A stretch of 64,000 nt of DNA from Bilabrum cf. latius (lineage: Eukaryota), in the NCBI GenBank assembly GCA_965178125.1, contig OZ237744.1, positions 992,001-1,056,000 on the forward strand, read 5' to 3'. This document shows positions 1-64,000 of this stretch, one piece after another. Numbering within the stretch: the first letter of the stretch is position 1; each line of letters begins with the position of its first letter. The translations under genes and the position numbers were made by a program. The notes below the pieces were generated by a model that saw only the letters and a list, made by a program, of their open reading frames with translations, made no database searches and was not told where the DNA came from.

Positions 1-1655
1 CGGGCGGTGCGGCAGGCCACAGAGGCCATCTCCTCCACTGTCGTGAAGGTGACTGCCGACAAGTTTCGGGCACATCGGGCCGCTCGACCCACCCTGGCGC
101 ATTGGGTGCTCTCTGCAGCGCGCTCTTCGGCATCATCTTTCGTCTCTGGCCTCGGTTCAGTGGATCGGATGCTCTTGAGGCCGCTCTTGTCCTCCCATAC
201 CTGCAGTGCCCTCCCGCCCACCTCGACTGCCCTGACACGGGCGAGGCACGCGCACCCCGCTGCATGCGCGGCAGGCGGTACGGTGTCTCTGCCGCGATGC
301 TCGCTGCGGAACAGAGCCCACCAGCTGGGCTCAATGGTGGCGAGCGTCGCGTCTGCCAGGGTGAGCGCCAGAGTCTGCATGCCAAGGAGGGGCACGTGCT
401 CTGAAGACTCCACCAGCTCGATGCACTCGAGGCACGAGGGACCCGGCAGGTCTAGGCGGTCCACCCACAGCGCCGACACGCCTTCCTGCCCTGCCTCGAC
501 GATGGCCTGCGCCCGCCACCCGTTGATCCTGGCCGCGGCAAGGTAGCCCGGCGACATGCCAAGCGCGTCAAGCTCGAGAGCCTGCCTGTACATCCGGAGG
601 GCGTCCTCGCCGGCACCCATCAGTAGCGCGTTGTCTGCCTGCTGCACCAACCCGCGAGCCGCGAACCCAGCCTTCACGTCTCGGCGCCTGCGGAACCTAT
701 CCGACGTCAGCGGACAGACGTCGTACCCTCCGTGCACCACAGCGGCGCAATCCGTCGGGTCCGTCCCCAGGGCCCTGATCCGCTCCACCCTCAGCTCCAG
801 GATGCTCTGCACGAAGCCTGCCAGGACCAGGTGCAGCACCTCGGCGTCTCGCTGCAGGGTCTGTTCCCCAGGGAACTACTGCTGCAGCGCGGCACTGCTA
901 GTGGAGGCACTCCCTGCGCCGGGTGCCCCGCCATCGAGGCCGAATGCGGCGTCCTCCTCCTCAGCGGTCTGCAGCCTGGCTGCCTGGCCGGCGGTCGACT
1001 TGGTGTACTGTGCATATGATATGTAGTCGCTCGTGGGCGGCTGTGCACTGGCTTGCTCCGGGGTTGTGTCCACAACCAGGCAGTGCGGGCGGATGCCAGC
1101 GAGTGCTGCTGGACCTCGGAGCTGCGCGAGGCCGTTCGGACCGGATGGCTCGGAACCATCGGTGTCAAATAGGCGATTTGCGAAGTCGCACGCCCAAGGC
1201 GAAGCGAAAAAGCTGTCAATGGCTGCGTTGAGATCTTTGACGCGGGGAGCATAGCACACGCCAAGCACCCCAATAAAATTGTCCTCCTCTGGCCAAGGAG
1301 CATCCTGAAAAGATGCCGATATAGGGCCAGCAGAAACTGCAGACTTGCCTGCTGATTGTCCGTCTTTCCATTTGTGCAGGAACTTGCATTGCGACTGAAT
1401 CTGTTGCGCAAATCGAGCCGCCATTGTGTGAGTCAACGGGACGAAATCAATCTCCGTGTTCCCCTCAAACCCATTATATTCTGACAGTGCAGGCACTTTA
1501 TCTGGACTCAGCCCTATGTTCTCGTTCGGAAACGTGCCAACTGCATCCAAAAGACGCAAGCACCTGACTGGAATGTCCGACCCAACTGGTACCACCAATA
1601 CTCGGTTTCGAGGGACCCACGAGCGATTCGGCGATTCAGATAACGAGGACTTCAT
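1..1655 (-). CDS. TRAPPC9/Trs120-like TRAPP II subunit (3' end runs off the window)
   Basis: ATG at 1655; one in-frame TAG (876-878), after which the frame stays open toward the window edge. Motifs VLVVPVG, W...FIGVLGV and RGLVQQADNALLMGAGEDALRMYRQALEL resemble the Trs120/TRAPPC9 N-terminal region (recognised from memory). Confidence 0.55.
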
Positions 1656-1915
1656 CAATTGCACTGAACCATTTGCACAGCGGCAGTATGACTGATTTTC
1701 TACGAACGTTTCGTACTTGCCAATTTTGAAGACGAAGCATGAATTATTTCATGATATGACACGTCGGCAAATTTCTCAGTAGCTGTGTGTGGGTTCGTGG
1801 AACAGATTGCCTTTCGTAAGCTGTAGCAGGCTTGCAATCCCTTGAATCCAAGGCTCCGCTGCGGTTCTTCGGGACGCCTGAGGGGGTCAGTTAGACCGGT
1901 GCTGCGGCCTGTTCC

Positions 1916-3343
1916 ATGTCACATGACGAGTCGCAAGAGCTATTATTGGGCGATAAGCTGAGCAAATCAAATGACGATAGTCATTCGGCTCAAACTCCTA
2001 GGGATGCAAATGCATCAGCATCACCGGGTGAATCTCAATCGACGTGCCAGTTCAGCCTCGGTTGTGCAGGCAGATGGGCCTTTCTAATTGTTATATCTGG
2101 CCTTCTGCTTTTTGTATTAATCGATAGTATAGTTGGTAATGATGCCGGCGGGGTACTCCGATCGTTTTTAGCATGGATCAGAGGCCGTAACTTAGCGGTT
2201 GCGGCCGTGGTGTTCGCTCTAGTGTACACAGTGTGCACCGTGCTAGCGATTCCAGGTTCGATTCTTACACTCGGGGCCGGGTTTATATTTACATAGGCCC
2301 TTTCGCCGGTACAGGGCATCGCAGTTGCAAGTGGGACAGTGTTTGTGGGTGCCAGCCTTGGCGCATACTGCTGCTTTTTGCTCTCTCGCGTCATTTTGCG
2401 AGAATGGGCGTCTGATTTCTTCAGGCAATATTCCATCTTGCGCGCAGTGGAACGGGCCATCGAGAAGTATCCTCTCCGTGTCATGTTCCTGCTGCGGCTG
2501 AGCCCCGTGGTGCCCTTCAACGTCCTCAACTACGCCTCGGGCACGCTGCCGCTATCCCACGTCAGCTACGTGCTCGCCATGCTGGGCATGATCCCGGGCA
2601 CCGTGGTATACTGCGTGGTGGGGTCCTACTTGTCTAGCCTGTCCGAGCTGGCCAAGGGAGGAGGCGGTCCCAGCGGCATGGGTCACGAGAGCAGGCGGAG
2701 GCACCGGCGCGCCACGGTGCTCAAGCAGGTGCTCTGGGCAGTGGGGGTGGTTGCAACCGTGCTTTGCCTCGCACTCATCACATGGTATGCCAGGCAAGAG
2801 CTCTCTGCTCAGCTGGAAGAAGAGGCCAGGGAGAGGGAGGAGGGGGCAGGGGTAGAGGCACAGGGGCAGGGGCAGGGGCAGGGTGGCGGCGGTGGTGGTG
2901 GTGGTGGTGGTGGTGGTGGTGGTGGTGGTGTGGGTGTGGGTGTGGGTGTGGTCGCTGCTAGGCACAGTGGGGAGGGGGGAAGCGAAGGGCAGGGGAAGGA
3001 ATGGTCCACTCGAGGGCAGAACGAGGGAATGGGGGGGCGGGCTAGGTCAGCCGAGGAGGAGTCGGAGTCGGAGGGGGGTGGTGCTGGGGTGCGACTCAAA
3101 GTGCACGTTGAGTGGGGGGCTGTGGGGGCGGGCAGTGGGGGCGCCGCGTCGGGCCGGAGACCTACTGCCTCCCGGGCAAGCAGTAGCAGGACGAGCAGGA
3201 GTGGGAGCATGGAGGGGATTGAAGCCGGGGCCATGGGGCATGCTGGGTCTCGAGCGCCGGTGCTTGCGTCGGCGCATGCTGCACTCGTGAGCCGGGGCAC
3301 TGCTTCTGGCAGAGCCAATCGCACCCACGGCAGCTTGCGGTAA
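1916..3343 (+). CDS. TVP38/TMEM64 (SNARE-associated Golgi, VTT domain) membrane protein
   Basis: ORFs 1916-2296 and 2339-3343 are in the same frame, joined through TAG 2294-2296. Motifs IPGSILTLGAG, LLRLSPVVPFNVLNY, GMIPGT; ends TAA; Gly-rich tail. Confidence 0.88.
2883..2950 (+). repeat. (GGT)n and (GGTGTG)n coding microsatellite (poly-Gly, Gly-Val)
   Basis: Direct reading of the sequence. Confidence 0.9.
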
Positions 3344-7825: not shown

Positions 7826-9941
7826 TCAGCCAAGCTCCGGGATCGGCACCTCCTAGCTCCATAGCTTGTGCACAAACTGGTATAGCCCCGCGGAGACAGA
7901 CACCTTGTAAGGGGTCGGGTTGAGCGGCCTCATGTGGTCCTCGCGCAGGAGCAGCAGCTGGTCGCCCACGTACTTCTTGAGGTCATCCATGGGCGGCAGC
8001 CGGCACCGTCGGCCCGTGGTGCACTCCACCGGCAGCTTGTCCGCCGCGTCCGAAGATACCTCCCCGCTGCCCGCCCCGCTCGCCGCGCCTGTGCCCGACC
8101 CTTCACCCGCCCCTGCGCCCGGCGACTCGCTGGACTCGCTCTTCTCGGCCGCCGCGAGGAACCCCCCGGACTTGTTCCCCAGCCACACGGGGGCCAGCAG
8201 CGGCATCACGAAGGAGGGCGTCACGTAGACCCTCTTCTTCTCGTCGAACGGGTGCCGGCACAGCATCCTGGTGCCCGCCGCGGGTGCTGCCTCTCCCCTC
8301 GCAATGATCACGTCGAGCAGCGCCTGCGAGTCGCGCCCGATCAGGCGGTAGGCCTCCTTGGAGCCCGGGATGGTGACCTTGGCGATGTCCTGGCTGATCT
8401 TGATGCGGGCGGCCCCGTTGACCTCCACCAGCTTGAAGACCATGCCCAGGGCGGGCTGTGCCTGGCAGGTGACCAGGTTGGTCCCGATCCCGTACACGTC
8501 GATCTCGTGACCCTGGTCGTTGAGCGAGTTGAGCACGGCCTCGTTGATGCTGTTCGAGGCCACGATCTTGGAGCTGCCAGCCAAGGACGCACCGGTGGCC
8601 GTGTCTGCCTCCTTCATCATCTTGCGGGCCTCTTTCGAGAGGTAGGCCAGGTCACCGCTGTCCAGCCGGATGCCCCTCGGGGAGTAGCCTTGCTCTGCGA
8701 GCGCCAGGGCCACTGAGAGAAAGTTCGGCACGCCGCTCTGCAGTGTTTCGTACGTGTCCACGAGGGCGAGGAACCCGTCAGGGAAGGCGAGAGCGTACGC
8801 GATAAAGGCCGCGAGCTCGGAATCGCTTGCGCTGTCAAAGCCGAGCACCTGCCTCCAGGCCCACGCGCGGGCGAGCAAGTCCACGGAACCGTCCTCCTGC
8901 TTCGCGAAGCTCTTGCTCCCCGGGGCAACGCTGCAGCCGGCAGAGTCTAGCTTGCTCGAGTCGGGCGCGCCCTCGGCCGGCTTGCCTGGGTGCTCCGGGT
9001 TATGGGCGAGCACCCTCTGCTTCACGTCGTCCAGGGCCGTGTAGGTCGACACAAAAGAGTGCGCGTGCGTGCCGCGCACGTCCATTCCGAAGGTTTTCCC
9101 AGCCAGCACGTTGGAGGTCGCGTCGAAGCCTCCCATGCTCGAGTACCTGGAGGCCGACATGGCTCCGTCGGTGCCTTGCGCGCGGCGCAGGCCGAATTCG
9201 ATCAGCGTCTTGTCCTTGCCTGCGGCCTGCCGGAACCGGCAGGCGTTCGTGGCCATCAGCGACGCAAAGTTCGTGCAATTTAAGAATGGTGTCTCGAGCA
9301 GCTGGCAGACGAGCAAGGGGCCCTCCACGCGAATCAAGGGCACGCGCGGGAAGACCACGGTGCCTTCTGCAACCGCGTGGATTTGCACCTCGGAGCAATC
9401 CACAGTCGCAAGGAATGCCCAGAATTCATCTTCAGCCTTTGGCAACTTTGTCCTGCGGACACTAGGGCAGGGAGAAGACTGCTTGCCACGTGCTGCGCTG
9501 AAGGTGCGATGGGGTGGCAGTTCTTGCTGCGATACTCACCTAAGGTAGTCGATGTCGCTCTTGGTGATGCTAAATGTTTGAACAAGTCGAAGTGCCTGCG
9601 GATGGTACAGTCAGGATTATGCCGGCGGACGGGTTTTAGTGTATTTGCCACCCATCTGAAGGCCACCGTCATTCTCGCATCAAAGCGTACCTCACCTCTT
9701 CAAGTCCACCGAATACGGTGTACTCTCCTTTAAATGGGTTCTTCCGAAAGAAAAGATCAAATACTGCGCGGTCGTTGTGCTTGCCGTTCTTCCAGTACGC
9801 GTATGCCATCGTAATCTGGTACATGTCGGTGAGCAGCGGCGTCAGGAACGAGCTTGTCGGCGGGGCAGCACCGGACGAGTCAACGTCCTCCCTAGTACCT
9901 GCACCACTGGATGCATCAGATTTGCCAGCCACAGCTGCCAT
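7826..9941 (-). CDS. NAPRT: Nicotinate phosphoribosyltransferase; exons 9941-9696, 9595-9540, 9452-7826
   Basis: [74 protein letters not shown]...GCAG introns join in frame. The conserved tail LWS(TAG)EVPIPELG continues past TAG 7853-7855 to TGA. Confidence 0.95.
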
Positions 9942-13361: not shown

Positions 13362-13397
<36 letters not shown>

Positions 13398-21842: not shown

Positions 21843-23516
21843 TCAGTGCACGCCAGTCATGTGTGTCTTGAGATGGCCTGCCTACCCGAAGCGCTTGCCG
21901 CACACTGTGCACTCGTGATTGCGCTCCCCCAGATGCACGACAGTCATGTGTGTCTTGAGATCACCTGCCTACCCGAAGCGCTTGCCGCACACGGTGCACT
22001 CGTGCTTGCGCTCCCCCAGATGCACGACAGTCATGTGCTTCTTGAGATGGCCTGCCTCCCCGAAGCGCTTGCCGCACACTGTGCACTCGTGATTGCGCTC
22101 CCCCAGATGCACGACAGTCATGTGCTTCTTGAGACTGCCTGCCTCCCCGAAGCGCTTGCCGCACACTGTGCACTCGTGCTTGCGCTCCCCCAGATGCACG
22201 ACAGTCATGTGCTTCTTGAGATTGCCTGCCGCCCCGAAGCGCTTGCCGCACACTGTGCACTCGTGCTTGCGCTCCCCATGATGCACGACAGTCATGTGTG
22301 TCTTGAGACTGCCTGCCTACCCGAAGCGCTTGCCGCACACGGTGCACTCGTGCTTGCGCTCCCCCAGATGCACGACAGTCATGTGCTTCTTGAGATGGCC
22401 TGCCTACCCGAAGCGCTTGCCGCACACTGTGCACTCGTGCTTGCGCTCCCCATGATGCACCGTACTCATGTGCTTCTTGAGATCACCTGCCTACCCGAAG
22501 CGCTTGCCGCACACTGTGCACTCGTGCTTGCGCTCCCCCAGATGCACGACAGTCATGTGCTTCTTGAGATGGCCTGCCTACCCGAAGCGCTTGCCGCACA
22601 CTGTGCACTCGTGCTTGCGCTCCCCCAGATGCACCGTGCTCATGTGTGTCTTGAGATCACCTGCCTACCCGAAGCGCTTGCCGCACACGGTGCACTCGTG
22701 CTTGCGCTCCCCCAGATGCACGACAGTCATGTGCTTCTTGAGATGGCCTGCCTACCCGAAGCGCTTGCCGCACACTGTGCACTCGTGCTTGCGTTGCCCC
22801 AGATGCACCGTGCTCATGTGCTTCCTGAGATTGCCGGCCTCCCCGAAGCGCTTGCCGCACACGGTGCACTCGTGCTTGCGCTCCCCATGATGCACGACAG
22901 TCATGTGTGTCTTGAGATCACCTGCCTACCCGAAGCGCTTGCCGCACACTGTGCACTCGTGCTTGCGCTCCCCCAGATGCACCGACGACTCGTGCCGCCT
23001 CAAGCTCGTCTGGGAGCTCAGCGATTTGCCGCATGTCTCGCAAGTGTACACACGCACGCTTGAGAGTCCGTCTGTGCGTCGTCTCTTCTAGCCTCTGCCA
23101 GAATCAGAGGCCTACTAGTACTCAGTTAGCATTGTGGTACCACTACCCTAGCCTCTGCATCGCTTTCGTCTTAGCGAGTGAGCGATAGGATTCCTTGCTG
23201 CTCTTGCTACGATCGTAAAGCCTCTTCCAGATTGTGCAGCTGATACAGCGTATAGAGAGCTGCCGGACGCCTCAGCGGGAGCTCCAGCTGCCTAATTGCC
23301 GTTTTCTACCGTCACTACATCGCGACTTGGTGGATCGGGAAATGATTCCGTGCCCGAAGCTTGCTGACTTCCTGGCTAAGCACTAGCACGACTACCGCTG
23401 CCCTGCTTACGGCGCTATGACTATGCCTGTGCGTCGCTTTCACTGTCGCTACAGCTGGAATCGCTTACTAAGTCAATCAAGTCAGGCTATGAGCTCCGCA
23501 TGGCTACTTCGTCCAT
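21843..23516 (-). CDS. C2H2 zinc-finger protein A (14 fingers)
   Basis: ATG 23516, one divergent finger, then 13 near-identical 29-aa units ([29 protein letters not shown]); 18 in-frame TAGs and no TAA/TGA until TGA 21843. Confidence 0.88.
21846..22985 (-). repeat. 87-bp coding minisatellite, 13 units (zinc-finger array A)
   Basis: GAAGCGCTTGCCGCAC recurs every 87 nt from 21888 to 22932. Confidence 0.95.
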
Positions 23517-23780
23517 CCGAACTACTGTGTCTCGGCGTGAAACCTGATAATAAATCAATAGAAGCCGATTAAAGCTGGAAAGAGAGGTTTGTGCTATTTA
23601 CGAGCTCTTCGAGTCCCAAGAAAGCCCAGATACAAAACCGAAACTCCGCTGTGAAAATACGCCTGGACAAGAGTCAAGTAGATGTTTAGTGGTTTCCTGA
23701 AAGGAAAATCCGTGGTGTGGCGTCAGCAGTGTGAACCAGCTTACGCGTGGACGGCGCCGCTCCGGGTCATCGCAGCCCAG

Positions 23781-25532
23781 TTAGCCCCTCGATCCCTGCA
23801 GCCTGTCAAACGCCTCGTACGCCCTGAGTGTGCTCGGCAGCACGGACGGCCGCACCATGCGCACCGCGGACTCGAAGTCCCTCGCCGTGATCTTGCGCAG
23901 CGAGGAAGCGTTGATGCTGGCCACCGTGCGCCCCGCCGCCCTCGCAGCCGCCCTGGCGTCGTCCACCGGCCCCCTGGAGGCCTGCTGGCACACCTGCCTA
24001 ATGTCAGAGGCGGAGTACCCCTCCAGCGCGCCCACGATCCGGCCCACATCGGCCTTGCTGATTGCCATGGCCTCCCCCTGCATCATGTGCGCCACCAGTG
24101 CGCGGCGCGAGGCGGGGTCTGGCAGGGGCAGCAGCACGCGGCGGCTGAGCCTCCGCAGCATGGCATCGTCTAGCTCCTGGGGCCTGTTGGTGGCCGCGAT
24201 CACGAACACTCCGTCCCCGTCCCCGGACGACATGCCGTCCATCTGCACGAGCATCTCCGTCTTGAGTCTCCTGGATGCGTCGTTCTCGCCCGCGGATCGG
24301 CTGGACATGAGCGAGTCGATCTCGTCAATGAAGATCACACAGGGCGCCAGCTTGCGCGCGGCGGAGAACAGCGCCCGCACCTGCTTCTCGCTCTCACCTA
24401 CGTACTTGCCCGTGAGCGCAGAGGCGCTGATGCTCAGGAAGGCCGCGCCGCTCTCGGCCGCGAGTGCTTTGGCAAGGAGGGTCTTCCCTGTGCCGGGTGG
24501 TCCGAACAGAAGCACTCCCTTGGGGGGGGCACGGATCCCCCGGAAGAGGGAGGGGTTGAGAAGGGGCTCCACCACGGCCTCAGTGAGGATCCGTTTGGGG
24601 AAGTCCATCCCGGCCGCCATGGACCAGCCCTCCCCCGTCCCCGGGCGCACCCCCGGCTTGGGGTCAACCAGGGCCTGCTCCACCATGGCACGCTCCTCGG
24701 GAGACAGTGCGGCAACCAGCGCCGCGGCGGAGGCAGTGCCACGAGTGGCTGCCAGGGCGTGCCGGGGCTCGGCCTGAGCCTGTGGAGGACCAGCGAGAGC
24801 TGCTCCGCCCCGACCTGAAGCAGCCGCCGACAGCGCGGGAGCGGAAGCGCTACTGCCAGAACCCGGGCTGGTGCCCGCTACATGTGCTCCGGCAGCCGTT
24901 GCCGATGCCAGCGGGGACCCTCCTGCCCCCTGTCCAGATGAGACCGCGCCTACTGCTCCTGCCCCACTGGGGCCCATCATTGGCCACTTGCGCAACGAAG
25001 GCGCCGCGGAGCCATTCGTTACAGCATGATGACTTTGCGTTTTATTTGGAAGGTCATTCGGTGCGCTTGAGGTCCGTGTGGCGACGGGAACGCCAGTCCC
25101 TCCTCGTTGCTAAAGCGCCGTTGCCCCAGCCTAGAGAGCCATGACCGATGATGACCTCGAGGCTATCCCTACGCTTAGATTTGTTGTCTCCACGTCTGGC
25201 GTCCCTTTCAGTGGCCTTGGGCTCACATCTGCTGGGATGGCGCCTCGCCCTGCGCCTCCCAAGCGCGTACGAGCGCTGTGCAGTTTCTTCATCAGGCCTT
25301 CCGCAAACTCAACAGCAGTTGCCGGTGGAATCTTACCGCTCTTCTTGATTCTCTCCAGTTCCTGCAATACACGCTCCAAGCTCTGCTAGAACGAGCTTGC
25401 TGCCGCGGCATAGTCACCCGATGAAACATAGTGCTCTCCCTAGCGATCCAGACTGGCTGATTTTCGCAAGCAGTCTTCACTCAGTACTCCAATATCAGCT
25501 TCATCGCCCTCTGTTGAAGGGCCGGCTCCCAT
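23781..25532 (-). CDS. Spastin/fidgetin-like (meiotic clade) AAA ATPase
   Basis: PPKGVLLFGPPGTGKT (Walker A), IFIDEIDSL (Walker B), SRRLKTE, AATNRPQELDDA, GYSASDI. The frame extends through 4 TAGs to ATG 25532 (MGAGPS); ends TAA. Confidence 0.9.
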
Positions 25533-25702
25533 TAAGCATGTACTGCGCTCTGGATCCTTGCTGGGATTACCGGGCAATTCTATGCAGGTTCGTTGGTATC
25601 GGCGAAGGTTCCATGCTTTGGAGATTTCGGGCCGCCTGAACCGAATCCGACTGTGTGCAACACGTCGTTCCTAGTTTTCGTAGTCAGCTGTCTTTACTTA
25701 CC

Positions 25703-29829: not shown

Positions 29830-29961
29830 GATTTGAAGCTAGAAGATTTGTCCATTGCTTGTCGTGCGACCAGAGCAGTGCAGTGGAGCCGGCGCCGCGA
29901 CGTCCGGTTCCGCAGTGTCCGTTCGCGCGGAGGGTTTGTGCAACCTTCAAAGCTTTCCACC

Positions 29962-35779: not shown

Positions 35780-36973
35780 TCAGAGGCGGCCGCCGGAGCC
35801 CTCAAGGGTCTTGGCATCACCGGTGCCGGCGGCAGCCTTGGCCTCCTCCTCGCGGGCCACCTTGTCTCCGGGCAGCTCCATGGCCGCACCGTCGTGCACC
35901 TCCATGAGCTTGGAGATGTCGAACTTGGGGCGCTTGAGCACCTTCACCTTGCGCACGTACACGTCGTGCAAGGGGAACACCTTGGAGCAGATGGTCGACA
36001 CGCGCTTGGACACGGCGCCCGAGATGAGCTTCTTGGTGAGGTCGTTCAGCGAGCTCTTCTTGCCCTCGTCCTCCATCACCTCCACCATCTTCTTCCGGAT
36101 GGCGCGCACCTGAGAGGCCTGCGCGTACGTGGTCTTGGCTACCTGGTCCTCCTGCCTGTTGGTGAAACCAATGCAGAACATGCGCACGGTGTACCCGTCG
36201 TCGGTCTTCACGTCCACGTTCCCCTCGATCGTCGTCTGCCACTTGCGCATCAGGCCCATGAGCTTGTCGCGCGTGAAATCCATGCCGTAGAAGTTGCACA
36301 TGGCATCCTTGCCCTTCACCTCCTCCACGATCAGGCGCATCTTGCGGAAAGACGTCTCCTCGGACTGGGCGTGCAGGTCGCCCAGGTTGATCTCGAACAC
36401 GCGCCCCTTCATGGCCTCAGTGGCGATGTCTGCGAGGAAATTTCATCACATTATTAAACCATAAGCGCTAGGATGGAGACATGCAGTTGCGCTGCGGCTT
36501 GTGAACGAGCTCTGAAGCGCAGTGGCGGCTGCATCGATCCAAGCATACTCACAAGGCGTACCATCCTTCTTGGTGCCACCGCTCTTGCGCACGGGGGTCT
36601 TGCCAGCAACTCGGTTCCGGAAGATAGCGGGGACCTTCACGTCGTACCAATCCTGCGTGGTCGCGGCAAAGCAGACAGAGAGTGCGGCACCAGATGAGGG
36701 CATTCAGGTGCTTCGGTCCGCTGCCGGCCCAAGCTCGACTTTGAGCAATCAAGCCAACAATTAATGCTAAACAAATTGCAAGCCATGGACTACACGGAGA
36801 CAGCTACAATCCCCCTAGCCAGGGCATGCAAAACCCGGTGCAACAGCAGTTGCAGAGAGACAGGCGGTTCCCAAATTGCACGCTCGAAAGCTCACCTTCT
36901 TCGCGAAGGGGTCTGCCTGCTTCTTCTTGGACCCCTTCTTCTTTCCAAGCTTCTTGTTCTTGCCGATAGCCAT
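35780..36973 (-). CDS. RPS3A: 40S ribosomal protein eS1 (S3a); exons 36973-36896, 36652-~36552 or 36562, 36429-35780
   Basis: MAIGKNKKL...DPFAKK|DWYDVKVP, KGRVFEINLGDL, NFYGMDFTRDKL, KWQTTIEGNVDVKT, FPLHDVYVRKVKVLKRPKFD; the second donor site is ambiguous; no TAG. Confidence 0.97.
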
Positions 36974-47320: not shown

Positions 47321-47352
<32 letters not shown>

Positions 47353-51320: not shown

Positions 51321-53692
51321 TCATGCCATGTCTGGACCACCTTCTTCCTCCTCTTGTCCCTCGTCTGAATCGTCGTCGCCGACCATAGACACCGCTGCGC
51401 TCCGCATCGGGCTGGGCGGCTGGCTCCCATCCCCGGGCATCGAACCTCCAACGTAGCGAGGAGCCTCACTGGAGAACACCATGGAGCCTCCCTCGGAGAA
51501 CAAAACGCTGCCCCCGCGGCTTGGGTACAGCATCGAGCCCGCGTGCATGGACGTTGTGCTCGCGCTCGCCCCACTGCCACTCGCGAGGGTCTCCCGGCCC
51601 GGAGACCAGCGCTGCCTGCTGGTATTACTGGCAGCACCAGTACGATGCACGGCAGCATCGAGGGCCAGCTCACCCAGCGAGCCCTCGCCCTCCATGGGCA
51701 CACTGCCAGAGGCATGTGACCCTGCCCTATCGCCCCCCTCCCCGCCCTCCAGGGATCCGGAATCGGCGCAGAAGGCCTGGCTGCGCAGGGCCCGCCGCCC
51801 CTCCCGTCTGCTTGTGAAAACACTCCCCGCACCACTCCGTGATTCCCCCGCGGCTGTCTATCTCACAGGCTGCGGGCCTGCGCCCCAGAACGGCGGGGGC
51901 GGGGGCATGCCGGTGCCCTTGCGATTACCCTTGCTGTTGCTCGGGTCATCTCTCCCACCCACCCCATTGGAGCCTTTCCCCGGGTTGCTGCTCGCCGCCA
52001 TGCCCCCCCAAGCAGCTGCACCCGCTGCTCCCGCCGCGCCCGAGAAGCTCATCTGCCCCCCCATGCCCAGGCTGGAAGAAAAAGGAACACCCGAGGGTGG
52101 CGCCCCGCCCTCTGTCCAGCTGCTCGAGCGAGACAGCCGGTGCACAGCTGGCAGCGAGGGGGCCTCGCCGCGCGAACGCACGGACTCGCCGGCGCTGGGA
52201 CCGGCTGCGCGACCGAATCCCGCCATGGCACCCCCACAGCTTCCCTCCCGCTCGATGAGCACCTCCTCGGAGGCCATTGAGGCGACTCCCACATCGGAAG
52301 GACACAGCCCCTGCCTTCTCTTCCGGCTCCGAGTTGTGACGATCCCACCGGGGGTTGAAGCACCCATGGATGATGCAGCTGCTGCGGATGTCGCCAGCCG
52401 ATACGCCACACTGTTCCCCCCCTTCCCTTGCTGAGGAGCAGCCGCCACCACCCTCCAACCGCTCGCACCACTGGCATGAGCGTGCCCCCCGCTCGTGGTC
52501 CGTCTCACGCCGTCCTTGCTCCCCTTTGCCCCTGCCACTGCCCCCGTGCTCCTAGGAGCGACGGCCTTTGCCGCACGGATGTCCTCTCGAGTGGCCAGGC
52601 TCAGCACGTCCGGGTGCCTGGGGTTGGCAGCATGCAGCCTCGCGGCCTCGTCCACAATCTCCTTGGGCAGGGAGCACCTGCCGAACAGCTCCTTCTCGTA
52701 CTGGACCAGCTACAGGATGAATCCAGCGTTGGGACGCACGGTCGATCGCACGGATTTGAGCCTGCGCACGGCACCCGCGAGCGACATGCGGTGCTTGCCC
52801 ATGAGATAGGCGAGCACGAGGGTGGAGGACCTCGACCGGCCGGCGAAGCAGTGGACGAGCACGCGGCCCCCGCTCTTGATAGCTCCCGCGATAAAGCTGT
52901 TCGAGCGGTCGAAATGGGAGGATATCCTCTCGGATGTGCGGTCAAGCAGGGGGACGCAAATGTAGTGAAGCTTGTCTTTGAACTAGGGGACCAAGCCATC
53001 GGCGCAAGAAAGCATGTGGGTTATGCCAGCCGCGCGCAGGGCGTCGTAGCTGACTGCCGCCCCCACCGACCCTATGAATACTCCAGAAACAACTTGCATC
53101 GGCGTGCTATCAGACTCTGCGAACCGCGCTACCATTGCACCTGCATTCGGAGACAAGCAACATGGCACGCGCTACCCGTGGATGCAGTGTGGAAACCGAC
53201 CCAAACGCGGCAACCCGCAGCAACCAGACCAAGACTGAGTGACTCGAATATACCATCACGTAAAACACCGAACGATATTAGCAAAAAGCGTGGTTGTCGC
53301 CCCAAAATGGCGGTAGTGAGTGGTCGCGGAAAATCAGCTGCTATGCACCGCCGAGATTAGCAGAGGCGCTCAAGGCTTAGCTCAGCAGGTTTACCGAGCA
53401 GAATATGCACAAGAATCATCAGTAGACTACAAATAAACCGCCAAGGCTTTCAAACATGCAGCAACGGCAACGTGCGACGTCCAATTGGTCAACAAAGCTC
53501 GCTACGTGTACTAGTCTCACTCTTGAGGGCAAGGTTATATATTGCTTCGTCCTGTTGACTCTTCGATAGGGATTTGCCGACTTCTTTTTTGAGATCAAAC
53601 ACCCCAACGAACTCTTTAGGGTGCCTTCGAGGCCGCCTCTATTCACCGCTGCCACTCCGGCCCCTCGCCTGCTGGTCAGTGACCGAGTCCAT
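51321..53692 (-). CDS. Dual-specificity protein phosphatase (MKP/DsPTP1-like); probable intron 53520-53141
   Basis: GVFIGS, GITHML, VLVHCFAGRSRSSTLVLAYLM (CX5R), VRPNAGFIL(TAG)LVQYE; TAGs at 53639, 52983, 52710, 51858; exon 1 is less certain. Confidence 0.9.
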
Positions 53693-53990: not shown

Positions 53991-54998
53991 ATGTCAGCAG
54001 ATCGGAGCGCCATTGGCGACGAAGAGCTGTACAACCGACAGATTTACGCAATCGGGCGCGATGCCCAGCTTCGACTTAGCAACTCCGCAGTTCTCGTCGT
54101 AGGATGCTCTGGTGCAGGCACTGAGTGTGCCAAGAACTTGGCGTTGATGGGATGCAAGCGAATTCACGTTGTAGACGCTACACCGGCAGCGTCTGATGAT
54201 CTCTCTGCAAATTTCTACTTGAATCCGAGTGACATTGGCAAGCCCAGGGCTTCAGTGTGCGCCCCCAAAGTATCGGAGCTCAATCCGTACGTAGAAGTAT
54301 AGGACAAGTAGTATGGAGTGGACGATTGCGTCGCGAACGTCGATTCCTATCAGGCTGTGGTACTTGCAAATCAGACTGCTCCGACGATCGGAAGAATTGG
54401 CGCAGCTTGTCGCGAAGCAAAGGTTCCAGTCATCGCGGCAGAGCAGCGAGGTACCTTTGGCCGCATCCTATGCGATTTCGGCGCGTAGGTAGAGGTTACG
54501 GATCCCGACGGGGAGGAGCCTGCGCAGCGCATGATCGCGTCCGTTGTGGTTGGCCCCAAAACGACAGTGACCGTGCACGAAGAGGCGCGGCACGGTCTCA
54601 GCAGCGGGGACCTCGTTACATTCAAGGGAATGGAAGGGCCTCTAGCAGGCCTAAACGGCTGCGCCCCGGCCCGCGTGCTCCCAAAGGACGGCTTCGTCGT
54701 GGAAGTGGAGGTTGACACGAGCGGGGAGCAGTTCCGGGGCGAGCAAGTGCCCGGGCGCGGGTTCCTCGTGCAGGTCAAGCCCAGCGCCACGGTGCGGCAC
54801 AGACCCATCGTGGACGTTCTCGAGGACCCCGGAGAGGCCATGCAGCCCACCGACTTTGGTAAGATCGAGCAGCAGGCCCTCCTCCACGGTGCCTTCGCTG
54901 CCCTGCACGAGGGGGGTGGCGTGCCTGCTGCTGGGAATGACGAGGAGGCGGAGGCTGTCGTCCGGGCGTGGAAGTAGCAGCAGGGAACAACTGAGCCC

Positions 54999-55045
<47 letters not shown>

Positions 55046-57521
55046 ATCAGCGGCGGCTGGCGCCGGCAGCGGAGACCCCTCGGCTGGAGCTGTCCCCGGC
55101 GCCGAGGAGTTTGTCCGCCGGTTCGCAAGGACGAGCAGCGGGCACCTGAGTCCGGTGGCAGCGATCGTGGGCGGTGTGGCAGCCCAGGAGGCCGTCAAGG
55201 CCATCAGTCGGAAGAACACGCCCCTCTCCCAGCTGGCGTACTTTGATTTCTCCGAGGCACTGCCCGACGAGCTGCCGCCCGCCGAGTAGCGCAAGCCCAA
55301 GGGAGATAGGTACGACGGCCAGCGGGCGGTGTTCGGCGAGGCCGTGCAGCGGAAGCTGGGCAGCACGCGGGCGTTCCTGGTGGGCGCTGGTGCGATCGGC
55401 TGCGAGGTGCTCAAGTCGTGGGCGCTCATGGGAGTGGGGTGCGGGGAGCAAGGGGGGGGGAAGGGGGGGGCAGGGAGCGCTGCAGATGCCGCATCGGGGG
55501 CCGGCGCAGGCGGCCCGGTCGAATCCACTGAGGGTGATCTCAGCTTCGCTGACGAGGGGTGCGGCCCGGGGGGCATGGTGCACGTGACGGACATGGACCA
55601 CATCGAGAAGTCCAACCTGAGCCGGCAGTTCCTCTTCCGCGCCGGTGACATTGGCAACCCCAAGAGCGTGACAGCCGCGGCCGCCGCCCGTCGCATGAAC
55701 CCCTCGATGCGGGTCAGGGCACACGAGCAGCCGATCGGGGGAACAACGGAGGACTACTTTAGGGCCCCCTTCTGGAAGGGCCTTGACGTGGTGTGCACGG
55801 CGCTGGACAACGTGCAGGCGCGGCTTTACGCGGACACGATGTGCGTGCGCCACCTCCTGCCGATGCTCGAGAGTGGCACCTCGTCCACCAAGGGGAACAC
55901 CTAGATCGTGGTGCCGCACCTCACCGAGAACTACGGGGCACAGAGGGACCCGCCCGCCACCTCCTTCCCCGTGTGCACGGTGAAGCAGTTCCCCGGCAAG
56001 ATCGAGCACACTCTGCAGTGGGCAAGGGAGTGGTTCGAGGAGCACATGTCGCAGGCGCCGAGGGACGCGCAGTCCTACATCGACCGCGGCGACTTTCTCG
56101 AAGAGCAGCGCCGCACTTCTGCTACCTACGAGCCCGTGCTGCACAAGCTGCACGAGAACCTGGGGGCGCGCAAGCCCACGATGCTCAAGCACTGCGCCGC
56201 GTGGGCCAGGCAGCAGTTCGAGCACCTCTTCTCCTCCAACGTGAGGAAGCTCCTGGCGGCATTTCCGCCGGGGCACACCACCAGCAACGGGGTGCCGTTC
56301 TGGTCGGGGCCGAGGCGGTGCCCCGCCCCCGTCGACTTTGACCAGGCTTGCCCCATGCACGTGGATTTCGTGGCGGCTGCCGCGCGGCTCCGCGCAAGTG
56401 TGTATGGGCTCAACCACGGCAAGACGTCGGACGCCGAGTTTGCCGAGTGGGCGGCTGAGGCAGAGGTGGGCCGTTGGAAGGACGGGGCAGGGGGCGGCGG
56501 CGTGCCGCAAATGGCAGCGGACGATGAGGAGCTCAAGCGGCTGGAGGAGGAGAAGAAAAGGCAGGCGGAGCAGGCAGGCGCCGACGACGAGACAGTCGCG
56601 GAGCGGAGGAAGCTCGAGTCCTCGCTGCCCGACCGCAAGATGCTGGCGGGGCTGAAGCTGAGGCCCGTGGACTTTGACAAGGACACGGACCTCCACATGA
56701 CACTGGTGGCGGCTGCTTCCAACCTACGCGCCACCAACTACTCCATCGACACGGCGGACAAGCTCCGGTCCCGGCTCATCGCCGGCCGGATCACACCTGC
56801 CATCGCAACGACCACGGCCATCGTGGTGGGCCTCATCCAGATGGAGCTATACAAGCTGGCACAGGGCAAGAGCCGCGTGGAGGATTACCGCATGGCCTTC
56901 GTGAACCTCAGCGTGCCCTTCTTCTCCGTCACGGAGCCCGCGCCCTGCGAGGGAACAGTGGTCACGCTGCCCCCCGCTGCAGAGTACCAGCCCCAGGGCT
57001 TGGCGCTGCTGCCGCCTAGTAGCGAGGGCACCGAGGCGGAGGGCGACAAGGGGGAGGAGGATGGCTCTCGGCGCTGGCGGTGGACGTTGTGGGACTCGCT
57101 CGAGGTGCAAGGGCCCATGACCCTCGAGGCCCTGCTGGCCTGGCTGCAGGAGCAGTTCGGGTCCGAGCCGGAGATGGTGAACTTCGGGCCCGCGATGCTT
57201 TACGCGTCCTTCCAGATGATGATGATGCCCAAGGAGAAGAAGGATAGGCGGATGCAGTCCACGGTGGTGCAGCTCGCCGAGGAGGTCACCAAGAAGCCCG
57301 TGCCATTCGCCAAGGGCCAGCGGTCCGCCATGGAGCTCATCGTCGGTCTCGAGGACGAGGACCTGGTGCTTCCACCCATCAAGTACATTGTGTCCCAGGA
57401 GGAAATAGTGGCGGCGCGGGCCAACAGGCAGGCGCTCGGGGTGGTGGGCGGTGAGGATGAGGATGGAGAGGGGGAGGCGGCGGCGGGTGGTACCGACGGC
57501 TAGGCGCCCATGCTCGGCTGA
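53991..57521 (+). CDS. UBA1: Ubiquitin-activating enzyme E1
   Basis: LYNRQIY, GTECAKNLALMG, GGVAAQEAVKAIS, RYDGQ, LVGAGAIGCEVLK, DMDHIEKSNLSRQFLFR, KGNT(TAG)IVVPHLTENY, catalytic FPVCTVKQFP, AGRITPAIATTTA; 7 TAGs; first TGA at 57519-57521. Confidence 0.96.
54999..55048 (+). repeat. (TCATCG)n poly-Ser insertion in UBA1
   Basis: Direct reading of the sequence. Confidence 0.85.
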
Positions 57522-59416: not shown

Positions 59417-59595
59417 GCCTGATCTGGTCATACCGCCGGTTTGGAGCACAAAGCGGATTTGGTCACGCTTCCCAAAGATGGCAAAACCAGGCTGTGAGAA
59501 GGCTAGATTGAGTACAAAACAAAGATCAATTTCGAATCAACGATAGCAAAGAGGCTCTTGCGAGCAATCCCATTCGTTTGATCCCACAAAATGCT

Positions 59596-61071
59596 TTAAG
59601 TCTGTTCGTCCTCCTGGGCCTCCCCGGTTCCCGCGGCGCTAGATCCAGACGAGCGTAGCTGCTGCACCCTCTATCTATCGCGCCTGCCTCGGGCAATTGC
59701 CTAAATGCGAGTTGCGCTTTGCTCCGCTTGCTCTTTCTCCTAGCGGATCTCGGCCACACGATGCCGGTCCTGCCTACCCCGCGCAATCGCCTGGATTCGG
59801 GCAGCCGCGGCCGCCTGCTCTGCATCATCCTTCGCGCCCCCAGCTGCATCCTTCGCGTCCCCAGCTGCATCCCCCGCCGCTTCACCTGCCTTGGCCTTCA
59901 TGTCAGCAACTCGCTGCCGGTCCTGCCTACCCCGCGCAATCGCCTGGATTCGGGCAGCCGCGGCCGCCTGCTCTGCATCATCCTTCGCGCCCCCAGCTGC
60001 ATCCTTCGCGTCCCCAGCTGCATCCTTCGCGTCCTCAGCTGCATCCCCCGCCGCTTCACCTGCCTTGGCCTTCATGTCAGCAACTCGCTGCCGGTCCTGC
60101 CTACCCCGCGCAATCGCCTGGATTCGGGCAGCCGCGGCCGCCTGCTCTGCATCATCCTTCGCGCCCCCAGCTGCATCCTTCGCGTCCCCAGCTGCATCCC
60201 CCGCCGCTTCACCTGCCTTGGCCTTCATGTCAGCAACTCGCTGCCGGTCCTGCCTACCCCGCGCAATCGCCTGGATTCGGGCAGCCGCGGCCGCCTGCTC
60301 TGCATCATCCTTCGCGCCCCCAGCTGCATCCTTCGCGTCCCCAGCTGCATCCCCCGCCGCTTCACCTGCCTTGGCCTTCATGTCAGCAACTCGCTGCCTA
60401 TCACGCTTACCACGAGCGGCAGCCTAGATCTTAACGGCACTTGCTTCTGCTTTACGCTGCTCTTTGATCTCAGTTGCTTTCTGGCGGCCTTGCTTGCCGC
60501 GCGCTGCTGCCTGTATCCTGAGGGCAGCAGCCTCTTCTTCTGCTTTGCTTAAACCCGACTTGGCTTCTGCTCCTGCATTGCGGGCGCCAGCAGCAACATC
60601 CTCCTTGCGCTCTCGCGGGGCATCAGTTGCACCAGTTGCAGTAGCTTTTGCACTCTTGGTTGTATTCGATGCCTTTGACTCCGCGGAATCCACCACTTCT
60701 GCAAAATAGTAGATCTTTCATGCTACCAATGGGTATCATACTGCAAAGCGACGACCTTTTGGACTGGCGGGCACAACCCAGCCTGGCAGCAATGCTGGTG
60801 CATACATGTCTCACTCGAAGCGTGGCCGGCGGCCTGATCGATCATATCATCAGCATGGTCGCCAATCTGCGATAAAATTATATTTTGAGCGGCAATCTAG
60901 TTGCACAACAGCACAGTATAGCTGGCAAAATGCCTTCAACGCACATGTCCGTTCGTTCCACCCAAACATTTAGAGTACCTCTCGCAATCGCAACTCCACG
61001 CCAAGTAATAGCACGCAACACAAACTCACACCACCGGGTGTCACTGGAAGCTTCGACGAAACGCAACCCAT
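59596..61071 (-). CDS. Acylated (MGCVSSK) Ala/Asp/Lys-rich calmodulin-binding protein with 7 IQ motifs; exons 61071-61030, 60866-60815, 60698-59596
   Basis: IQAxARG motifs; two GTGAG...GCAG introns in phase; TAGs at 60424, 59740, 59701, 59671; ends TAA. Confidence 0.82.
59760..60397 (-). repeat. 153-bp (51-aa) tandem repeat, 4 copies, one with an extra 21 nt
   Basis: Near-identical MKAKAGEAAGDAA...ARIQAIARGRQDRQRVAD units. Confidence 0.93.
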
Positions 61072-61193
61072 CGCGGAAGCACTTTATTCTGCAAGAAAAC
61101 CGATCTCGAGCGGATCTCGGTCGCATAATCCGTATTTTCATTGATAGCGTGTAGTTGTGTGCCGAAGGGCAACTCTCACATCATTGGTGCAAA

Positions 61194-63512
61194 ATGGGAA
61201 ATACCGCGCTTGCACCAGACTTTCCTGTCGACAAAGTAGCAGAAATTACTCAAAACGTGCTTGAAATCTTTGCCCCGGTCTATGTTAAGGCTCATGGAAT
61301 AGCAACCGTGCGAAGACTGCACCGGGAGGATGAAGCGGCCAGACTCGGGGCCAGCACGCTTGAAAATCCTGATGGGTTCAAGCTGAAAGCGCCTCCAGTT
61401 GGAACGTAGCCACTTATGATGGGTTACATGGAAAAGCGTGGCGAGGGTGGAGCCGGCTGGAAGAAGCGATTCTTTGTTGCAAGAAATAAGGTTCGGCATC
61501 TTGTCCTTCGAACGCGCGCTGTCCATGGAAATAGTGCCCGAACTGTTGCTCTGTATATTGTGTACTTGGATATTTCGCAGGCTGATAACTTTTGTATCGA
61601 GTATTTCGAATCGAAGGAGATGTCGTCAAAACGTGCAAGCAGAAAGGGTTCTATCGAGCCTTGTGGATACTTGGTCCGCTCGGTCAAGGATGAAGACGAG
61701 GTTAAGGAACACGGAGAGAATGCAATATGCCTGGATCCGAAGGACGGCCGCAGGGTGTGGTACATGCGCTGCGCCACGGCCGAGGACCGCACCGTTTGGA
61801 AGGCAGTCCTCAAGTATAGCGCCAGCCACGCAGAGCCTCCCCTCGGCGACGACCCTGACGCCGCCACTGCATTTCGTGACGCGTACCGAGGGGTTCGCCG
61901 CTCGTTGGGGTTCTGGGGCTATTACCGCGTGGACAAGTGCCAGCAGGACATGCTGTCTGAGCTGTGCGTGGAGCGGTGCAAGCTCCTGGTGAGTCTTGGA
62001 CAACAGTGGTAGGTGCAACTGTCCTAGTGCCACTTCATTTCACAGGTTCCGGGGTGATAAAGAATAGTGTGGCAGCGAGGGGGGCAGATGCTTGTATTGA
62101 CGGCGGCGGCCTGCATGGCCACGTCATGGGTGCCACCTCTCGTCTGACGCCGGCCCACCAGTCGGCGCCTGGTTGCCCAGCGTAGCCTATCCTCTTTTAA
62201 CCTCACCTTTACCGGCGCCTTGCCTCGTATTCTCTTTCTTCCCTCGCAGCTCTTGACAGACGTCTTCGACACCCTGGTGGGCCAGCGCGACGAGGATCGG
62301 ATCAAGGAGGCCGCCATCGCCGAGACGAGGCGGGTGGTGGAGGCCCTCGTCAAGGTGGGCTGGAAGGCAATCAACAAGAGGGCCAACAAGAGGAGGGCCA
62401 CGCTGGGGGAGAGCATCGGGAGCACCCTGGGCACCACCATGCACGACTGGAGCAGTCGCAAGCAGGACATCCGCAAGAAGGTCGAGAGGCACGTCAGGAC
62501 AGCCGCAGTGGAGGTGAACAAGCCAATCCTGGGCAACCTTCTGAGCGCCTACCTCATGCCCGTGTACCGCGCGCACAAGGAGTCCGTGCGGATCTACTGG
62601 ACCAAGATGTCCGGCATCCTGGACCGGGGCCTCAAGGAGAGGGACCTCCGGGCCCTGTTCGAGGACACGAGGTGGGAGGACGGGTCTCTCTGCAGGGCCC
62701 TGTAGATGATCCGAGCACTCACGAGGGGAGAGGTGGGCACGCCGGAGAAGCCAGACCCAGAGCTGGCACTGTGCCTCAGGGACCTGGAGGTGGACCTCCC
62801 CGTCCTCCTCGAGATGATGCACGGGGTGTCTTTGTGGGAGACGGAGCGGGTGCTGGTGGCGAGCCTGCAGGAGAGCGTGGCTCGGGCCATATACTCCTTC
62901 GTTGACATCGTGGAGCACGCCCCCGAGAAGATGACTCCGGAGGCCTGCTTGCACGAGGCCACTCGTCGTCTGATCGACGACTGCAAGGCCCGTGCCAAGA
63001 GGGACATATAGAAGGTACTGCTCATGATCGTGGGCCCGGCGGTGAGGAGGAGGCTCGTGCAGGTGCCGGCCGTGCAGGAGGTGCTCGCCTCTTCCGCGTA
63101 CAGCGCCACCAGACCGCTTGGAAAAGTGCCTCTGGGGCCCGGGGCGGGGATGGATCATGGCTCGGCGGCCAAAGGCGCGGCGAGCGGGGGCGCATCCTCC
63201 TCCTCGTCCGGCGCAGCGTCGGGCTCAGGATCCGGGTCGGACATCGGCAGCAGTGTCCCCGCGCCCGGGGCCGAAACGCCCATGGGCCAGCTGAAGCCCG
63301 GGGGCAGCACTGCCACTGTGGAGCGCGAGCTCAAGGCGCGCATGTACGAGGTGGGCGTGGCGGTGAGCGAAGGCTTCGTGGACGCGGACTGGCTGCTGGA
63401 CGAGGTGATCGAAGAGGACGTGATGGCGGTGCTGCGGGCGGGGACGAACGAGACGATTGACTTGATGCTGAGCCGGCTGAGCAAGCTGCCGGGCAAGCTG
63501 GGCTTCCTGTGA
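61194..63512 (+). CDS. PH-domain protein, Niban/FAM129-like; probable introns 61491-61580 and 61989-62249
   Basis: MGN start, GYMEKRG...WKKRFFV...IEYFE...KGSI...W PH pattern followed by a helical region; TAGs at 61407, 62703, 63009; ends TGA. The Niban assignment is by overall resemblance. Confidence 0.7.
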
Positions 63513-63593
63513 GGGGGGGGAGTGAGGCGCGAGCTTGCTCGTATGGCTTTCCGCGCACATTCAAGGGAGTGTTGTCACTTGCAATCGCGCATA

Positions 63594-64000
63594 TTATGAC
63601 CCAGATCCATCTTCCATAGCTGCAGATCCTGCACTTGCTGCTGCCCCTTCCCCAGCGTCGGTTGCCTTGGCTTCACCTGCTGCTGCTGCTGGACCCTCCG
63701 TCTCGGCGTGCGTCGGAGCCTATCGTACGTAGAGCACGTTGTTGCATCGGATCAGCAGCTCTCCTAGCTTTCCCGCAAATTCACCGTCCAAAAATTCCTC
63801 GGCTTCCTGGAGCTACACGTTCATGTAGCTATCGAACGATGCTAGCTTGCCTGCGAGGCATCGAAAAGGACTAGCTGTCGATCACTCCCAAAGTAGGCAT
63901 AAAGTGGCGCAAGCGGCAGTAAAACGGTTGATCGCGGTGATTCTCACCTCGATACTCGGTACCCCATTTCAATTTCACGGCCACATTCTTGCCTACCAGG
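63594..64000 (-). CDS. SNRPF: Small nuclear ribonucleoprotein SmF (5' end beyond the window); intron 63947-63851
   Basis: [29 protein letters not shown](TAG)[30 protein letters not shown]; ends TAA 63594-63596; absent from the ORF track. Confidence 0.93.

Follow-up and report, generated by a model that had tools for sequence, protein, structure and literature searches.

The stretch of DNA considered here comprises positions 992,001 to 1,056,000 of contig OZ237744.1 (64,000 nucleotides, referred to in the following as the window), and our subject is the meaning of the codon TAG in the genes that it carries. The window is nuclear DNA with short introns bounded by GT..AG; its base composition is 62% GC overall and varies between 59 and 71% GC along the 64 kb. 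When the ORF translations were made with TAG as a sense codon and compared with Pfam, an ordinary eukaryotic nuclear gene set emerged (Table 1).

Table 1. Genes, introns and TAG codons of interest in the 64-kb window (positions are those of the window; x in a peptide stands for the residue under discussion)
Feature	Position	Strand	Evidence and remarks
VTT-domain protein; ankyrin protein; sulfatase; trypsin/PDZ protein; LYR protein; UTP23			In window; Pfam
Maf; RhoGAP; DENN protein			In window; Pfam
Nicotinate phosphoribosyltransferase (NAPRT)	7826..9535	minus	Pfam; TAG 7853-7855, 8 codons upstream of TGA stop
C2H2 zinc-finger array 1, 14 fingers	21843..23597	minus	18 TAGs, 9 of them at one finger position (F-G-x-A-G)
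Fidgetin-like/spastin-like AAA ATPase	23781..25697	minus	Pfam AAA 1.8e-45; TAA stop 23781-23783
C2H2 zinc-finger array 2	25640..27529	plus	9 TAGs; codons at CG[x]RF position: AAG 11, CAG 2, TAG 2
Enoyl-CoA isomerase-like (ECI)	28942..29946	minus	Pfam ECH_1 1.2e-41; 5 TAGs in ORF segment, including 29320-29322 (GLNEVx); TGA stop
PACRG exon (flagellar protein)	30533..31123	plus	Pfam ParcG 4.1e-56, reaching profile end 183/183; no TAG; TGA stop
Ribosomal protein S3Ae (RPS3A) exon	35780..36442	minus	Pfam; no TAG, 6 CAG; TGA stop
Dual-specificity phosphatase (DUSP)	51321..53135	minus	Pfam DSPc 1.6e-30; TAG 52710-52712 in PNAGFILxL; TGA stop 51321-51323
5' intron of DUSP transcript, 380 nt	53138..53517	minus	CT..AC on plus strand; joint 53137>53518 in X5, X6 and X7 contigs, not in X1
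UBA1 (E1 ubiquitin-activating enzyme), intronless	53994..57521	plus	7 in-frame TAGs; TAG 55902-55904 in KGNTxIVVP; TGA stop
IQ-motif repeat protein	59596..60717	minus	Q of IQ motif: CAG in 5 copies, TAG in 2 (60424-60426, 59701-59703); TAA stop 59596-59598
PH-domain gene, three exons	61194..63512	plus	Introns 61489-61578 and 61988-62248; joints in X5, X6 and X7
SmF, last exon	63594..63849	minus	LSM Pfam 1e-13; TAG 63813-63815 in YMNVxL; second TAG at aa 54; TAA stop 63594-63596; joint 63849>63947
Segments spliced out of transcripts	53138-53517, 57762-57856, 60699-60814, 61489-61578, 61988-62248, 63850-63946		Contigs of X5, X6 and X7

TAG in reading frames and in transcripts

Nearly every gene of the window uses TAG as a sense codon. 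In-frame TAGs number 147 in 29 open reading frame (ORF) segments delimited from stop to stop, 128 (in about 27 genes) when those ahead of the first ATG or within introns defined by RNA are left out, and 79 when a positive codon-usage score is demanded on either side; some of the ORF TAGs are intronic or lie in 5' untranslated regions, e.g., those at residue 28 of the DUSP ORF, residue 69 of UTP23, and residues 379 and 384 of the PH-domain ORF. A first-pass annotation, made from the nucleotide sequence, had counted approximately 125, a figure that agrees with the middle one of these three counts. It had also reported TAG in 25 of 28 genes; that nearly all genes contain the codon was borne out, but two TAG-free segments (PACRG and RPS3A) were found rather than the three of 28 implied, and both hold few Gln codons (four and six, respectively). 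All of the individual TAGs that it had cited are present where it had placed them: at the DUSP site the plus strand reads CTA, and hence TAG on the minus strand, and those of UBA1, SmF, the two IQ motifs, the ECI-like protein (Table 1) and the ankyrin protein (DVNKxN) are likewise in place, as are the TAGs embedded in Gln runs (CAGCAGTAG at 3790-3798, and TAG CAG CAG at 54975, corresponding to residue 328 of UBA1). Its further statement that the TAGs are not accompanied by frameshifts holds for UBA1, the only gene tested for colinearity, which can be aligned with human UBA1 over 1175 amino acids (E 8e-209) despite its seven TAGs.

The effect of TAG on the length of reading frames is specific to this triplet. 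ORFs of at least 1000 amino acids are absent under the standard code, whereas seven appear when TAG is read as sense, none when TAA is, and one when TGA is. This is not a matter of triplet abundance, as TGA occurs 1535 times in the window, nearly twice as often as TAG (830), with TAA the least frequent (345). Coding-like sequence to the left and to the right of a stop triplet, assessed in all frames with a cross-validated codon-usage model (one half of the window served for training, the other for testing), was found for 44 of 828 TAGs, for none of 343 TAAs, and for 4 of 1527 TGAs; an earlier model without such cross-validation had returned 33, 0 and 1, respectively. The self-trained codon-usage score was used in place of the GC content at third codon positions (GC3), which was discarded as a coding filter because sense and antisense frames are not separated by it in GC-rich DNA. 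TAG accounts for about 17% of the Gln-type codons of the window.

Fourteen public sequencing runs from nine studies contain the window stretch or part of it; none of these is recorded as RNA. Contigs of four of them (X1, X5, X6 and X7) were aligned to positions 44001-64000. Those of run X1 retain the introns, show no joints, and behave like DNA, whereas the contigs of X5, X6 and X7, which stem from two studies, skip six segments with GT..AG ends (CT..AC for genes on the minus strand; Table 1). As these six intron-like segments are absent from the X5-X7 contigs, the latter derive from spliced RNA. The DUSP TAGs lie in spliced X6 and X7 contigs and those of the PH-domain gene in spliced X7 contigs, without a single other letter at these sites; the intronless UBA1 gene is covered by unspliced-looking X5 and X6 contigs with 0 differences from the window. 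When the exons of the PH-domain gene are joined at the RNA junctions, a frame of 656 codons results that contains three TAGs and whose sole TAA or TGA is the final TGA, and the spliced frame of SmF is likewise open, contains two TAGs, and closes at TAA. The first-pass annotation had proposed that TAG be confirmed in RNA reads, and the spliced contigs of three runs from two studies indeed carry the TAGs unchanged. The codon is thus present and unedited in mature mRNA, with the proviso that contigs can hide rare variants.

The summed depth of the contigs is uneven: it reaches about 3090 in positions 58675-59341 and 334-392 in 60009-60675, bins that hold simple repeats coding for Ser, Gly and Ala. 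These jumps probably reflect cross-matching of repeats and not copy number.

The amino acid at TAG and the remaining stop codons

That TAG stands for glutamine is indicated by comparison with homologous proteins. At the UBA1 TAG in KGNTxIVVP (residue 637), the corresponding column holds Q in 119 of 119 homologues; the TAG residue of the DUSP motif PNAGFILxL is opposite Q in five of the five solved DUSPs shown, and that of the SmF motif YMNVxL is opposite Q in five of the five solved SmF chains shown. Within the IQ-motif repeat protein, the defining Q of the motif is encoded by TAG in two of seven copies and by CAG in the other five. A protein from a Logan assembly (P0250) that is 98% identical to the NAPRT of the window has Q at the position of the TAG, and its last eight residues are identical.

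A more distant relative carries the same trait. The metagenome contig L001 (2892 nt, 60.5% GC) encodes a UBA1 orthologue in a single open frame of 963 codons with 14 TAGs and neither TAA nor TGA, whereas five other metagenome UBA1 orthologues (673-1006 codons each) contain no in-frame TAG, TAA or TGA. The L001 and window proteins are identical at 674 of 918 aligned positions (73%). Opposite the 14 TAGs of L001, the window has CAG five times, TAG once (the TAG at 55902-55904 is kept as TAG in L001), TCG three times (in a poly-Ser tract), and AGC, GGC, GGG, ACC and GCC once each. By this comparison of sequences, the second environmental organism shares the TAG trait.

Of the TAGs that the first-pass annotation had placed at glutamines conserved in their families, those in UBA1, DUSP, SmF and the IQ motifs stood up to this comparison, whereas the ECI site GLNEVx, where the four solved homologues shown have Q, L, A and T, and the ankyrin site DVNKxN are not conserved Gln columns. 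Its assignment of TAG to glutamine as such is upheld by the invariant Gln columns, the paralogous copies of the IQ motif, the Q found in the 98%-identical strain, and the exchange of TAG with CAG between the window and L001. Its view that TAA and TGA are kept as stop codons agrees with the flank tests and with the gene ends described below.

UGA is the main and UAA the minor stop codon. Among 27 ORF ends, 21 are TGA and six are TAA, and low-scoring sequence follows each of the six TAA ends. Within the window, Gln is encoded by CAA 143 times vs. 525 times by CAG; if TAA were used relative to TAG in the same proportion, the 44 TAGs in coding surroundings would lead one to expect about 12 such TAAs, and none was observed among 343. 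The TAA of the AAA ATPase gene lies at the C-terminus typical of the family, four residues past the last aligned residue (for comparison, FIGNL1 is aligned to 353 of 357 and spastin to 307 of 314 residues). At position 59513, one X7 contig has a poly-T loose end, the trace of a poly(A) tail on the IQ mRNA, which is transcribed from the minus strand; this message ends 83 nt past its TAA, ahead of the next TGA in frame. TGA ends, in turn, coincide with the C-termini of their families in PACRG, where the alignment runs to the end of the profile, and in ECI; two of the four TGAs that pass the flank test are located at the end of the UTP23 gene.

Several genes of the window have repetitive or compositionally peculiar products. 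The two C2H2 zinc-finger arrays (each with about 14 fingers) are divergently placed, sit on either side of the AAA ATPase gene, and consist of near-identical 29-residue units; the variable F-G-x-A-G position is encoded by TAG (13), GAG (8) and GCG (6), and never by CAG. TAG may hence be a preferred Gln codon in young zinc-finger repeats. The IQ-motif protein (59599-60717, minus strand) is built from tandem repeats of about 51 residues that are nearly identical as protein (AARIQAIARGRQDRQRVADMKAKAGEAAGD...). A block of 71% GC (37447-44007, plus strand) corresponds to the long low-complexity tail, rich in Ala, Gly, Ser and Pro, of the DENN-domain protein, and poly-Ser, poly-Gly or (PA)n tracts are found in many genes of the window, e.g., in the RhoGAP gene (31284-34493). 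The PH-domain protein apparently begins with MGNT..., a possible signal for N-myristoylation, and its C-terminal 420 residues matched no Pfam family.

Lineage of the organism and alternative readings of UAG

The nearest named relatives of the UBA1 and NAPRT of the window are found among the stramenopiles. In a tree of UBA1, the window and L001 proteins are sister to that of Cafeteria roenbergensis with a Shimodaira-Hasegawa-like approximate likelihood ratio (SH-aLRT) support of 98, within a clade (support 99) that also includes Bicosoecida sp.; in a tree of NAPRT, the window protein is sister to a clade containing Cafeteria (SH-aLRT 95). Both are quick maximum-likelihood trees of single genes, calculated with a short search and few outgroups from outside the stramenopiles. 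The best UBA1 matches are stramenopile proteins at about 40% identity, none above 43%, and the top cluster includes Bicosoecida sp.; the best named match of NAPRT is the C. roenbergensis protein (55% identity). For RPS3A, two metagenome relatives (P0121 and P0122) were found at 91% and 83% identity, and the remaining matches are mixed, uninformative as to taxonomy, and do not exceed 59%. That close relatives turn up in the protein database for the TAG-free RPS3A but not for UBA1 is the expected effect of gene calling with the standard code. Judged by sequence relationships, at least two to three related species are represented in environmental data, and the organism itself is probably a bicosoecid-related stramenopile standing beside the marine flagellate Cafeteria. 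The first-pass annotation had suggested an independent reassignment, and the two single-gene trees, in which the organism falls far from Iotanema and the ciliates, speak for this suggestion, with the bias in composition discussed below as a caveat.

Runs that contain most of positions 52000-61999 bear at least four coded organism labels (A-D) from four studies, and small shares occur in runs labelled 'algae metagenome' and 'protist metagenome'. Other cultures may thus often contain the organism, as a cobiont or as a contaminant.

Taken together, we consider it very likely that the window shows the nuclear code of a flagellate with introns and GC-rich DNA, probably a stramenopile related to the bicosoecids, and that in this code UAG has been fully reassigned to glutamine while UGA serves as the main and UAA as the minor stop, the pattern of NCBI translation table 15. 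Since UAA remains a stop codon, the decoder to be expected is a dedicated tRNA-Gln with the anticodon CUA, which is a single change away from that of tRNA-Gln(CUG) and would be unable to pair with UAA. Such a tRNA would be charged by a glutaminyl-tRNA synthetase (GlnRS) that tolerates the CUA anticodon, and the release factor eRF1 would have lost recognition of UAG while retaining that of UAA and UGA. For Iotanema, Panek et al. (PMC5304391) argue for the same mechanism and point to a T32G change in the GTS motif of eRF1, one of the motifs involved in stop recognition along with NIKS and YxCxxxF.

A number of observations weigh against this reading in one or another of its parts. The RNA nature of the X5-X7 contigs was deduced from their spliced joints alone, and X5 is classed as 'probably DNA'. 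Most TAGs lie in variable columns, with Q in only one of four homologues shown for ECI and in one of four for Maf; at residue 432 of UBA1, the column holds E in 66 and Q in 25 of 119 homologues, and the TAG of the window is opposite GAG in L001. UBA1 and NAPRT together have six TAG columns that can be aligned; when log-odds were summed over these with approximate amino-acid background frequencies, E (3.99) came out slightly ahead of Q (3.42), so that Gln and Glu are not separated, and a cruder column count over distant UBA1 and NAPRT homologues ranked E (-17.6) and A (-18.6) before Q (-19.7). The F-G-x-A-G position of the zinc fingers alternates TAG with GAG and GCG, not with CAG. Furthermore, the poly(A) end of the IQ mRNA was seen in one contig of one run, and UBA1 and SmF each carry a TAG shortly or well before their assigned stop, and UAG may in principle also terminate some genes. 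A tRNA scan of the 64 kb detected no tRNA gene and an Rfam scan no match; neither eRF1 nor GlnRS is among the window genes recognized through Pfam, and the mechanism outlined above is taken over from other lineages (PMC5304391). Finally, the window, L001 and Cafeteria sequences were all flagged for unusual composition, and the placement of the organism derives from two single genes.

Whether TAG is a genuine coding feature and whether it means glutamine can be weighed on the basis of these data. To attribute the TAGs to pseudogenes, to errors of assembly or sequencing, or to C-to-U or U-to-C editing that removes them from the mRNA has nothing in its favour besides the a priori rarity of code changes; X1, a DNA run, and X5-X7, the RNA-like ones, have no letter other than those of the window over the TAG sites, errors would have had to strike TAG alone (147 times in ORF segments bounded by TAA or TGA, with no frameshift in UBA1), and the same trait is found on the independent metagenome contig L001. 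We therefore grant such an artefact next to no probability. Programmed readthrough of single genes was also considered and was rejected, the number of sites being far too high. That TAG is a sense codon for glutamate or for another residue would fit the slight lead of E over Q in the distant homologues, UBA1 residue 432, and the TAG/GAG alternation at the zinc-finger position, and codes with UAG as Glu or Leu do occur in other protists (PMC11687900). Opposed to this stand the three invariant Gln columns, the IQ motif whose defining Q is partly encoded by TAG, and the NAPRT site with Q in the 98%-identical strain; moreover, none of the 14 L001 TAGs is opposite a Glu codon of the window, while of the 71 Glu codons that the window has in the listed classes, 50 are opposite Glu codons in L001. 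As the column scores of distant homologues are indecisive, the assignment to Gln is founded on the close relatives and on the columns in which Q is invariant, and a meaning other than Gln appears very improbable to us.

If TAG is read as glutamine, the scope and the mechanism of the reassignment still allow for variants. In a code of the table 6 type, UAA and UAG would both mean Gln, UGA would be the sole stop, and in-frame TAA would merely be rare because of the GC-richness; in keeping with this, TAA is the rarest of the stop triplets, 21 of the 27 ORF ends are TGA, and the table 6 variant is much the more common one (PMC5304391), being used by some green algae, many ciliates and the hexamitin diplomonads. 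It is hard to reconcile, however, with the lack of TAAs in coding surroundings where about 12 were expected, with the failure of TAA as sense to yield any ORF of at least 1000 amino acids, with an AAA ATPase whose TAA coincides with the C-terminus natural to its family and the low-scoring sequence after six TAA-terminated ORFs, and with an IQ mRNA that terminates upstream of any other in-frame stop; we regard it as having a very small chance of being correct. Context-dependent codes are known for other codons in Condylostoma and Blastocrithidia, and UAG might by analogy specify Gln within genes and yet terminate some of them, as could be suspected from the UBA1 TAG located five codons upstream of TGA and from the SmF TAG that directly follows the Sm fold and precedes 41 low-complexity codons. 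The codon-usage score of this SmF tail is nevertheless positive, the TAG situated eight codons from the end of NAPRT is read through (in the near-identical strain, Q occupies this site and the last eight residues are the same), and no gene among those compared in the window has homology ending at TAG, so that an ambiguous code strikes us as quite improbable. Finally, the code could be the same and the mechanism different, with a near-cognate tRNA-Gln(CUG), perhaps structurally altered, reading UAG after eRF1 has lost recognition of this codon. The 64-kb window without a tRNA gene accords with this variant and is uninformative; tRNA-Gln mediates near-cognate readthrough in organisms with the standard code (PMC13192750), and no suppressor tRNA was detected in Hartmannula or Trochilia (PMC11687900). 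On the other side, about one in six Gln-type codons is TAG and some of these occupy invariant positions of catalytic domains, for which efficient decoding is needed, and tRNA-Gln(CUA) is present in other lineages that read UAR (UAA and UAG) as Gln (PMC5304391). We hold the near-cognate route to be unlikely and prefer full reassignment of UAG with a dedicated tRNA-Gln(CUA).

Significance and comparison with known systems

Changes in the nuclear genetic code are rare, and reassignment of UAG alone is, to our knowledge, limited to very few eukaryotes, namely a small number of phyllopharyngean ciliates, a rhizarian, and Iotanema. With the window, a variant code that is already known (the table 15 type) is extended to a new lineage; the code is well supported at the levels of DNA, RNA and comparison, while the placement is provisional. 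Should its placement be true, this would be a further independent origin and the first in the stramenopiles, and also the first UAG-only case in a GC-rich genome that has UGA and not UAA as its main stop, which would bear on models of stop-codon capture. The presumed decoding tRNA-Gln(CUA) and the presumed changes in GlnRS and eRF1 should be directly findable in the full assembly. In practical terms, annotation with the standard code would fragment nearly every gene of the organism. A search of the literature found no nuclear code change for stramenopiles or bicosoecids in open full text (subscription journals and supplementary files lay outside the search), and the only bicosoecid paper there that matched code-change terms concerns a mitochondrial genome.

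Cafeteria is a classic host of giant viruses, notably of the giant virus CroV, and a Cafeteria-related flagellate is therefore a plausible type of host for giant viruses that use TAG as Gln. By this analogy, the organism of the window may be regarded as a candidate host type for such viruses. A wider proposal is that there is an unrecognized clade of free-living, bicosoecid-related stramenopile flagellates with UAG as Gln in the nuclear code, comprising at least two members and recurring in public runs under several organism labels, whose cells may be the missing hosts of those TAG=Gln giant viruses that lack a decoder of their own; we put it forward as a speculation that is, on present evidence, rather unlikely to hold.

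The closest named organism, C. roenbergensis (Bicosoecida), probably belongs to the same lineage of GC-rich heterotrophic stramenopile flagellates, and its UBA1 and NAPRT proteins are sister to those of the window. It differs in sequence (41% identity for UBA1 and 55% for NAPRT), and the proteins publicly available for it, annotated with the standard code, are full length; from these sequences, C. roenbergensis appears not to share the code change. The same table with TAG as Gln and TAA and TGA as stops is otherwise met in viruses, both in code-15 gut phages (PMC9523058) and among the giant-virus metagenome-assembled genomes of the GVMAGs V2 catalogue, some of which were called under alternative codes, code 15 among them (PMC13524828). 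Those are viral genomes; in the window, the code is that of the nucleus of a free-living eukaryotic cell. Table 6 codes, with UAA and UAG as Gln, are listed in PMC5304391 for hexamitin diplomonads, many ciliates, oxymonads, Dasycladales/Cladophorales and Amoeboaphelidium; they have in common with the window the conversion of UAG from stop to Gln and differ in UAA, which is not reassigned in the window.

UAG-only codes provide the nearest counterparts. According to the study by McGowan et al. (2024; PMC11687900), the phyllopharyngean ciliates Hartmannula sinica and Trochilia petrani use UAG for Gln and UAA as their preferred stop. Reassignment of UAG alone was inferred there from conserved Gln columns, as it is here, but in ciliates, with UAA as the fixed preference among stops. 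The window does not resemble ciliate DNA: it is GC-rich, has spliceosomal introns of 90-380 nt and UGA as its main stop, and groups on the Cafeteria side in two trees. The same set of meanings, UAG as Gln with UAA and UGA as stops, was described for Iotanema spirale (Metamonada, Fornicata) by Panek et al. in 2017 (PMC5304391). Both cases share the reassignment of UAG alone, decoupled from UAA, and an expected mechanism that combines tRNA-Gln(CUA) with an eRF1 weakened in UAG recognition. They differ in that Iotanema is an anaerobic metamonad, whereas the organism of the window is a probable aerobic stramenopile flagellate, and in the primary stop codon, which is UAA in Iotanema but UGA (21 of 27 ORF ends, with UAA at the remaining six) in the window with its 62% GC. 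While the case of Iotanema was made from a transcriptome, that of the window draws on genomic DNA, on spliced transcripts, and on a second, related organism.

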